A stretch of DNA of 64,000 nt, from assembly GCA_036785375.1 (NCBI GenBank), contig JAWMAR010000105.1, forward strand, positions 2,480,001-2,544,000. Reading direction: 5' to 3'. This stretch comes from Leucoraja ocellata (lineage: Eukaryota). The position numbers and the translations under genes were made by a program. The notes beneath the pieces are model-generated. The model did not search any database, was not told the DNA's origin, and saw nothing but the letters and a program-made list of their open reading frames with translations. Below, one piece after another: positions 4,001 through 51,299 of this stretch (position 1 is its first letter; the number at the start of each line of letters is the position of its first letter).

Positions 4001-4198
4001 ATCTCATTAAAGTGATTTATCTGATCTTTGCAAAATTATTGTAGAATTATTTATTTTCCTGTAAGCTATTTTCTCACAAGCAGAAGGCTATATTTTACAA
4101 TAATAAACCAGGCTTTAGCCTTTTGGAGATAAATAAATATACTGGCCTCTCCCCTAGTCGTTTAACCTGTTCCTCGGCTCTCCATATTGTATCTCTCT

Positions 4199-4837
4199 TG
4201 AATAAGCGAGTTCAGTATTCTGACTGCTCATGCCCAGGTCATGGGTCACTCGCGATAAACATTCTCGGCAGCGGTGCTGCTGCGTGGGTGCAGACCAGCT
4301 TTTCGTCCGTGGTCAGGATTGGGCCCGGGTCTCTGGTGCTGCTGAGTTGTTGCTGGGCCATCCCCGTCCATGTCCGAGGGCGGCCAGGCTGTCTGACGTC
4401 GGCCCGTTGTGGTGGCGCGGGCTTGCAGCTGGCGTGGAGCGGAGGCGCTGGCTCTGGCTTGGCTCTGCCTGTCCCGCCGGTCAACCGGTTGACCGGCGGC
4501 CCTGGAATGGCGGGGCGCCAGCCCGTTGTGGTGGCGGCCCGGGCTTGCAGCCGACATGGAGAAGAAACGCTAGCTCCATTGATCAGTGCTGGTGTCCCAT
4601 CAGGACAGGCAGAGTTGAGCTGGAGTTGGTGCTTCTTCTCCGCGCTGGCTGTGGGCCTGGAATGCCGCTGTATTGGCAGTTCGGCGGCGCCAGAGGCCCG
4701 GGTTCGATCCTGGCTGCTGATGGGGCGCGGGTCTCTGTGCATGCGGCAGCACGGTTGCCGGGGGTGTTTATCGCGAGTGACCTTTGACAAATTCCATGAT
4801 TCCTTGCGTTTTTCGGAATACCGAACTCACTTATTCA
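4199..4837 (+). repeat. GC-rich nested fold-back element with G-T-rich stems
   Basis: Inverted arms at 4199-4223/4813-4837, 4244-4352/4674-4782 and 4420-4474/4603-4657; perfect 26 bp palindrome at 4474-4499; internal direct repeat at 4402-4454/4521-4576. Confidence 0.9.
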
Positions 4838-5250
4838 CATCTTCCCAAGCCAACAATGGGCCCACTAGGGCACCATCCTGCCGGAGGTTATTTGTGGCTG
4901 GCTCTGGTCTTTTCTTCTTGCTTCTTGTTCCTCTTATCCCCCACCTCCAATCCCTTACTTTCAGTCTGAAGAAGGGTCCCAACCAGAAAGGTCACCTATC
5001 CTGTTTGTCCAGAGATGGTGCCTGACCAACTGAGTTACTCCAGCACTTTGTGTCCATCTTTGGTATAAACCAGCATCTGCAGTTCTTTATTTCTACTGAA
5101 ATTCACACCAAGCTAAATTTCAACTTAACCTTTCACTTTCAGGTATTTTAAACAGGTTGTTAATATTTCCTGTTTTTAATGTTATTTTTTAGAACGTGCT
5201 TGTCTATTTCGAGATCAAGTTTATACGATCAAACTGTCAAAAAACTGAAT

Positions 5251-50258: not shown

Positions 50259-51160
50259 TCATAGATTATTACGTTGCAAAGCATCACATAGATTCTGATT
50301 GGAATCGGGTTCTTCTGCTATCACAGCAATGACTTCCCATTCTCCAGATCTGCTTGATCTCTTAATAGCATCCACAACGCTTTGCATGTAAAGACCATCC
50401 TCAAACGAAGCAGCCATAGAAACCGGCTTGTCAGCCCAAGTGCGCCGATCCTCCTGATCCTTAAAAGACTTGCTCAAGGCTTGCACCATGTAAACAATTC
50501 CCTTTAGATACAAGAGGGGAATGTCACCAAATGCTTTCTCCAGCACACCAACTGCATTTACCAGCTTAGTGTCAGCAAAGAGCAGCTCCTCTTTGAAGGT
50601 AGTGTTTTTCTGGCCGTATAGGTCCGTGCCTCGAGCAACCAAACGCCCTGCAGAGCCCACAACCATGACTTCGTGAATAAAGGGGCCAGGCATATTAAAA
50701 TTGAGTGTAACAGTGCTACACACACCTCCATTCATTAACATTTGAAAGAAGCAGAAATCGTCACTGGTGACGTGCCGAATACCATGGATGTTGTCATTCT
50801 GCTTGACGAAGGTTTTCAGGAGGCCATGGACCTTCTCGGCTCTCTTATTGGTCAAGTGGGTCAATAGGTCCACGATGTAGGTGCCCATTGTGTGAAGGCC
50901 ACCTCCACCCATCAACTCGTCACAAATCCAGTTGTACTTGCTGCTGAGTAGACTGCCCCAATAAACACGCACATCACAGATCATGACATTACCAATGTAG
51001 CCTTCTTCAATTAGCCGTTTCATTTTGATAAATGCCGGCAGGAACCGAAGGACATTGTCTACAATACTCATGAGCTTAGGATAGTAACGAGCTGCTTTCA
51101 CCATTTTGAAGGCATCCGCCGAAGTAGCAGCCTTTTCACAGATTACATTCTTCCCAATAC
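50259..51160 (-). CDS. GFOD2: Glucose-fructose oxidoreductase domain-containing protein 2, last coding exon
   Basis: Acceptor tgtacaaaag, then (G)[27 protein letters not shown]...[22 protein letters not shown]...[13 protein letters not shown], near-identical to vertebrate GFOD2. The upstream coding exon was not found in the window. Confidence 0.96.
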
Positions 51161-51299
51161 CTTTTGTACAGACAAGGAATAAAAAGGAAAATAGTTAATT
51201 TCAATCAATTATGAAGCCTGGTGATTGCAAACATTACTGTTAAAGGTTTCAAAACAGCTTCAAATAATGATTGGAAAAACATTAATTTATGCATGCATT

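Follow-up and report, generated by a model that had tools for sequence, protein, structure and literature searches.

The rod-like fold-back of the window, i.e., of the whole 64,000-nucleotide stretch of Leucoraja ocellata DNA analyzed here, is the interior of a 629-bp non-autonomous fold-back DNA transposon of the ISL2EU type (4204-4832), and its strand asymmetry is most likely the fossil of A-to-I hyperediting of a hairpin RNA that was written back to DNA more than once. According to the reading favored here, to which we attach a probability of about 0.8, a hairpin transcript of an ISL2EU-type MITE was edited by ADAR and reverse-transcribed back into an element copy, which then spread by cut-and-paste. 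The kind of element is known. The unexpected part is that the dominant lineages of a class II transposon appear to go back, on more than one occasion, to RNA that had been hyperedited.

The element, its locus and its family

The pair counts made by hand in the initial annotation were recomputed and are exact, i.e., 75 Watson-Crick, 28 G-T, 6 other and 0 A-C pairs for the stem 4244-4352/4674-4782, and 37 Watson-Crick, 17 G-T, 1 C-T and 0 A-C pairs for the stem 4420-4474/4603-4657. When the folding energies of both strands were compared, as had been proposed there, the + strand folded far better as RNA (-383.4 kcal/mol, z -16.9) than the - strand (-265.2 kcal/mol, z -7.0). The fold-back is real, but the extent first given for it, 4244..4782, was too short, since the element occupies 4204-4832 with terminal inverted repeats (TIRs) at 4204-4223 and 4813-4832. 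The junction between flank and element is covered by contigs of three DNA-type runs carrying three other organism labels, with 2-4 differences, which rules out the objection of an assembly artefact; interior pieces of 109-127 nt, also with 2-4 differences, occur in two of those three runs, none of those listed spanning the whole stretch. The copy had been described as undecayed and its insertion as recent, neither of which is borne out. Indeed, only 22 of the 37 CpG sites of its subfamily (9 of these 37 having been created by A>G) are intact in the window copy, and its non-CpG divergence from the subfamily majority is 21/205. Decayed CpGs, together with the presence of the junction in runs of other labels, indicate that the insertion is not (very) recent.

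The proposed genome search for other copies revealed a dispersed repeat, with 641 exact matches of a 23-mer end motif and 984 of a 23-mer arm pattern, each against 0 for its control. A DNA similarity search gave 4102 candidates, of which 40 were scored, and the copy number is at least in the hundreds. Among 66 distinct two-ended copies (82 before duplicates were removed), AT adjoins the left end in 64 and the other end in 61, and the base flanking the AT is A in 55/66 and T in 58/66, giving an A|AT|T target. Copies L048, L064 and L019 lie inside a host repeat, whose empty form would be AATT. An AT duplication within A|AT|T is the one described for ISL2EU (PMC4482050). The TIRs, 20 bp long, start with AAG, which differs from the GG with which ISL2EU TIRs usually begin, “usually” being the wording of the source and hence no strict criterion (PMC4482050).

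Transposases were found beside the same ends by a Pfam search of the genome. One intact ORF of 527 aa, present at two places, carries THAP (PF05485), HTH_Tnp_4 (PF13613) and DDE_Tnp_4 (PF13359) domains, and in L160, L161, L164 and L169 related, decayed transposases lie between ends A and B. A protein of the family agrees at 98% with a named protein of a skate, in line with a skate as host. The decayed autonomous layout, as in L160, consists of end A, the transposase, a convergent ORF2 and end B. ORF2 begins at end B, runs convergent to the transposase and carries a SAP domain; YqaJ matches lie 1.3-3.5 kb downstream of it on the same strand at 3 of 24 YqaJ places, and, judging from this relative position, ORF2 probably continues into a YqaJ domain. 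The transposase follows end A on the same strand, so that the + strand of the window is the transposase-sense strand. Three of the four ISL2EU features tested were found (AT duplication, THAP+HTH+DDE partner, YqaJ ORF), the GG ends being the exception; the assignment is based on target-site duplication, domains, ORF layout and shared ends, and is thus one by features, not by clade placement. With its TIRs, AT duplication and ISL2EU-type THAP-HTH-DDE partner, the element cannot be said to match no known class, as was first thought. It further shares with the ISL2EU group of PHIS transposons the short TIRs, the animal host and the convergent second ORF that probably leads to a YqaJ domain (PMC4482050). 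It differs by the strand-specific A>G hyperconversion of its non-autonomous copies, which goes unmentioned for ISL2EU in the accessible parts of that source (PMC4482050).

Some other loci deserve mention in their own right. The 5.8-kb end pair L061 was considered as an autonomous element and rejected, as two elements and an inserted LINE lie within it. The only intact transposase ORF found for the family lies at L119:3680-5263 (contig C592) and at L118 (contig C142), where a nested edited MITE is present upstream, end B and ORF2 are apparently inverted and an F-box-like gene exon adjoins; this transposase is possibly immobilised or domesticated. A second, young ISL2EU-like family (L116:1171-6962 and L117:2812-6228) has 680-800-bp TIRs of 99.8% identity, an intact 452-aa transposase and a YqaJ ORF and, judging from its sequence, may be active today. 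A near-identical copy of the window element with its flanks, L002 (contig C105:1873194), lies 611 kb away, the flanks differing by 0.4-1.2% and the element by 3%; the many near-identical pairs of this kind suggest uncollapsed haplotypes or segmental duplications.

The window element is bordered by AT target-site duplications at 4202..4203 and 4833..4834. The left TIR, or end A (4204..4223, + strand), is common to transposase-bearing copies and its A's are unconverted. The end-A subterminal region (4224..4260, +), whose motif at 4244-4260 pairs with 4766-4782, is unconverted as well (0/12 at each of the sites 47-60), and its location upstream of the transposase in autonomous copies points to a promoter. 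The A>G-converted left arm of the rod (4261..4474, +) contains, at 4304..4345 (-), an antisense head fragment of a host tRNA-type repeat, probably a SINE and so called here, which is A>G converted on the + strand. As read in the unedited subfamily described below, 39 of its 42 nt are identical to the majority sequence of 17 host SINE copies. A perfect 13-bp local hairpin (4474..4499), found in this copy only and including 7 extra bases that are unaligned to the unedited yardstick, is followed by the second tandem copy of an internal unit of ~120 nt (4500..4602, +), which forms the hairpin centre and is less converted; the units have a spacing of 119-122, and the two differ mainly by A/G. The right arm (4603..4765, +), converted up to 4764, bears the same SINE head in sense orientation (4684..4723, +), again A>G converted, with a B-box-like stretch at 4701-4710, and ARAGORN reports a tRNA-like fold at 4644-4722. 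The end-B subterminal motif and spacer (4766..4812, +), unconverted and preceding the opposite-strand ORF2 in autonomous copies, lead to the right TIR, or end B (4813..4832, -). The interior is hence a patchwork of end-A subterminal DNA, of the 42-nt SINE head, present both sense and antisense, and of a varying number of ~120-nt units. The long ORFs over the element are a by-product of its GC richness.

Other captured pieces were observed in the family. A fragment of a CCCH zinc-finger gene (Pfam zf-CCCH, E 0.047), presumably ZFP36-like, is present at L064:775-1243 as a Pack-type capture, and an end-A type similar to that of L064 occurs in L070, L210, L215, L217 and L222. Window positions 4962-5090 hold a very abundant host repeat, which we take to be Penelope/retrozyme-like, with a hammerhead-like core motif at 4966 that scores below the Rfam gathering threshold; in subfamily B copies (L078, L063, L042), the centre consists of a folded-back piece of this repeat. 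From their sequences, the SINE head, this repeat and the zinc-finger piece look like transcribed sequences, which is suggestive only. Elsewhere in the window, a long exon at 50259-51194 (-) presumably belongs to a Gfo/Idh/MocA-type oxidoreductase gene.

Direction of the change and its enzymatic signature

Subfamily D shares its ends with subfamily A, to which the window copy belongs, and forms a near-perfect palindrome of ~680 nt (25/30 loci with both ends, 19 distinct). The check for symmetric decay in other copies, proposed in the initial annotation, gave G-T:A-C counts of 239:233 in the 19 unedited D copies and 421:394 in 58 other fold-backs (of the window and of family-masked loci), against 819:154 in 12 subfamily A copies (L075, unedited and counted with D, L172, a fragment, and L025, with a large insertion, were left out, and L013 was added). 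The bias of G-T over A-C is therefore beyond chance and family-specific.

Taking D as the yardstick (4 copies with an inverted centre left out), the column majority of subfamily A carries 42 A>G and 3 other changes, and that of subfamily B 39 A>G and 4 other. Per copy, subfamily A shows A>G at 651/1128 (58% of A's), T>C at 77/1151, C>T at 150/1600 and G>A at 84/1560; since copies share ancestors these counts are not independent, and weight is placed on the site-level counts. In subfamily B, 27 of 29 copies are converted, L065 and L078 being the exceptions. As to polarity, the host SINE has A at 10/10 converted sites (6/6 in 4304..4345 and 4/4 in 4684..4723), and each of four autonomous copies has A at 18/19, which indicates that A is ancestral. 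The change is thus A>G, on the transposase-sense strand only and in both arms. Later decay within subfamilies is symmetric (CpG 52/339 vs 46/333), and subfamilies A and D are equally diverged, at about 6%.

G-T pairs would also arise if C>T deamination, spontaneous or of the APOBEC type, had acted on a single-stranded + strand, but the outgroups show A>G and not C>T; what is seen is A>G on the sense strand of an element with a DDE transposase partner, not the G>A on the sense strand of an RT-encoding element that is expected of APOBEC. The chances of such a deamination, or of the insertion of an RNA replicon, are close to negligible. Indeed, the hammerhead-like core motif at 4966, which could recall the retrozyme- or viroid-like replicon first suggested, belongs to a neighboring, separate repeat, and the element is bounded by TIRs and an AT duplication and has a DDE partner, its termini being inverted and not the direct terminal repeats of a retrozyme. 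It contains no ribozyme or Rfam family: Rfam at gathering score gave 0 matches over the window, the 3 weak matches of an E-value scan of 4150-5120 were far below gathering and taken as chance, and no hammerhead core motif was found in the element on either strand.

Selection keeping a + strand RNA or single-stranded DNA rod paired, with G-U tolerated and A-C purged, would agree with the far better folding of that strand and with the mild C>T excess relative to D. However, it would be expected to retain C>T as well, which is the most frequent change and occurs at CpG, whereas the majority of subfamily A shows 42 A>G against 2 C>T; besides, decay within subfamilies is symmetric, the neighbor context is enzyme-like, and the unedited sister D spread equally without bias. 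Such selection is highly improbable. Of the two options initially offered, strand-specific editing or selection on an RNA rod, the former stands and the latter does not (42/45 A>G, enzyme-like context).

Conversion depended on the 5' neighbor. In subfamily A, it reached 8/8 after T, 8/8 after A, 16/22 after C and 14/25 after G (5' U/A 16/16 vs 5' G 14/25, p 0.003), and in subfamily B 8/8, 7/7, 13/17 and 12/23, respectively. Judged by these counts, both the neighbor order and the 58% conversion match the preference of ADAR (U>A>C>G) and its ceiling of 50-60% on long duplexes, as far as these are set out in PMC3113232. Conversion was also limited to duplex. In the central hairpin of subfamily B (16 copies), 0/78 A's of the loop, a count based on about 5 sites, were converted vs 241/520 in the stems. 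In the non-palindromic end-B DNA of 25 subfamily B copies (L048 and L077 left out), scored on columns where two unedited copies agree, 11/646 were converted. Hardly any conversion is seen in the TIRs and in the paired subterminal motif, with 0/4 ideal-context sites converted there vs 16/16 elsewhere, and in both arms conversion stops at mirror-image positions, at about +61. This limit would fit an RNA that begins near +60, or transposase binding that constrains the sequence. Within subfamily A, paired and unpaired sites did not differ significantly (p 0.05 with the MFE structure and 0.25 with the ancestral fold-back), probably due to post-editing rearrangement of the copies, and unconverted runs of up to 14 A's occur at the centres of these copies. 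In subfamily B, 24 nt left of the loop are paired yet spared (3/108 converted). ADAR spares 3' ends, which these nucleotides fit, although this was not predicted beforehand. The mild excess of C>T over G>A relative to D is not explained by ADAR.

These features bear on an error-prone DNA polymerase of the iota/eta type, inserting G opposite template T during + strand repair synthesis. Polymerases iota and eta make A>G and favor WA contexts, which resembles the observed 5' U/A bias. However, the polymerase would have had to produce 42 A>G but just 3 other changes over tracts hundreds of bases long, and to skip the loop between converted stems (0/78) and the non-palindromic end (11/646). We consider it very unlikely, and ADAR very probably the enzyme. 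The initial view that the sequence diverged as a single-stranded folded molecule is supported by the A>G on one strand (42/45), the neighbor context and the duplex limit.

Repeated editing and the return to DNA

The converted sites of subfamilies A and B overlap in part: 31 are common to both, 14 are converted in A only, 9 in B only and 8 in neither. At 5'G sites, the corresponding numbers are 6, 6, 5 and 6, as for independent events, and neighboring sites are swapped between A and B, an arrangement not expected of tract conversion from a single founder. A third edit pattern is found in L232/L262, where the left arm keeps its A's and shows T>C opposite a right-arm G in 21/25 cases and opposite a right-arm A in 6/30. 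Since the left T>C mirrors the right G's, one arm was copied from the edited other. In L076, L256, L252 and L254, both changes (A>G and T>C) are present in both arms. Among 68 rod-bearing ends, 40 show A>G, 7 both changes, 3 T>C only and 18 are unconverted; these came from 80 exact TIR ends among the first 100 listed, near-duplicates being kept and 12 having too little rod. Among the first 100 listed arm matches, 14 were fully unconverted when counted by eye. The possibility that every copy passes through RNA was rejected, as the minor-state A>G excess is weak in subfamily A (12/156 vs 22/623, p 0.03) and absent in subfamily B (p 0.41). Together with the symmetric later decay, this indicates that editing marks founders and not each jump. 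The patterns support at least two editing episodes, and probably three or more.

The asymmetric centre of the D palindrome exists in two orientations (flip/flop), 4/19 copies being inverted (L186, L200, L205, L209), and subfamily A carries both orientations in tandem. Variants of the end-A subterminal motif are mirrored by complementary variants at end B (e.g., L023, L063, L232), which suggests, from sequence comparison, frequent arm-to-arm copying.

The events may be ordered as follows. The starting point would be a near-perfect palindromic MITE with the same ends, which exists in unedited form. Transcription from the end-A promoter would turn this palindrome into an RNA hairpin of ~300 bp, and ADAR would then have edited A-to-I in both arms until the duplex was saturated, sparing loops and unpaired parts, a step that is strongly supported. 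The edited RNA, or its cDNA, would have replaced the interior of a DNA copy that kept its unedited ends, probably when a break in the palindrome was repaired on this template by means of a host reverse transcriptase. As seen from the shared patterns and the AT duplications, the edited copy acted as a founder, which was amplified and later decayed symmetrically. In some lineages, one arm appears to have been rebuilt from the edited other, turning A-T into G-C.

As for the way back, reverse transcription with replacement of the interior between unedited ends is slightly favored among the possible routes, the main alternative being retroposition of the whole element followed by rescue by the transposase. 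Intron-less ORF2 copies, looked for as a trace of reverse transcription, were absent (0/25 matches), and poly(A) or LINE-type junctions would be removed by cut-and-paste. Among the datasets listed as containing the stretch there was none of RNA, and in one RNA run only multi-mapping short repeat reads fell on the element. This lack of a cDNA hallmark is consistent with another possibility, in which ADAR acts directly on the DNA strand in RNA:DNA hybrids, the transcript pairing with the + strand of the opposite arm, so that reverse transcription is not needed. ADAR is active on such hybrids, and its action there would likewise confine A>G on the + strand to the arms, in ADAR context and with the loops spared. 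However, the ordinary co-transcriptional hybrid is that with the - strand, from which T>C through arms and loop is expected, whereas only 3/68 rod-bearing ends show T>C alone and 7 are mixed, and the T>C mirrors the right-arm G's where both arms can be scored. Besides, ADAR edits hybrids slowly, and cells repair inosine in their DNA; a conversion of 58% is difficult to reconcile with this. Direct editing of DNA is hence unlikely, and editing of the hairpin RNA followed by reverse transcription is preferred. That edited lineages outnumber unedited ones might reflect, as a guess, escape from palindrome instability or from dsRNA sensing.

Relation to known systems and significance

Palindromic MITEs and Foldback-type elements share with this family long internal inverted repeats, modules in variable number, high copy number, inversion of the centre and captured host fragments. 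Ordinary elements of these kinds decay symmetrically, as do subfamily D and the 58 other fold-backs; the window's subfamily differs from them in this respect. APOBEC-edited endogenous retroelements, as presented in the accessible parts of PMC4866542, likewise bear the strand-biased, clustered footprint of a host deaminase fossilised in genomic transposon copies, but as G>A in LTR elements via cDNA. In those parts, DNA transposons serve as the negative control for deaminase footprints, with no strand-biased signal (PMC4866542). The pattern is in line with ADAR hyperediting of long dsRNA, for which A>G clusters in both hairpin arms, the same 50-60% ceiling, the 5' order U/A > C > G and spared loops are described in the portions available of PMC3113232 and PMC2873906. 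According to the latter, ADAR clusters are found in RNA traces and APOBEC clusters in DNA (PMC2873906). Thus, what normally occurs in RNA or cDNA only is here fixed in germ-line DNA, in hundreds of copies or more. A literature search of open-access articles retrieved no account of a DNA transposon in which ADAR edits have become fixed, and earlier notice of an ADAR-edited DNA transposon is possible.

By definition, DNA transposons lack an RNA stage. The family could even have a built-in, recurring one, in which ADAR-edited transcripts routinely serve as the source from which its palindromic derivatives are remade while the TIRs are kept, a tentative idea to which we give somewhat less than even odds. 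If true, this would be an edit-and-copy ratchet, in which arms are re-copied and host RNA editing is written into the germ line; GC would be raised, palindrome instability and dsRNA sensing escaped and host RNAs captured, and the family's own YqaJ-type nuclease might take part. On the favored reading, the family offers natural, countable evidence that RNA sequence, including its editing, can re-enter vertebrate germ-line DNA, in the same element and repeatedly. With edited and unedited sister subfamilies side by side, RNA-templated repair and the inheritance of RNA edits can be tested from sequences only, and other genomes can be screened cheaply for the same event by means of the G-T:A-C ratio.
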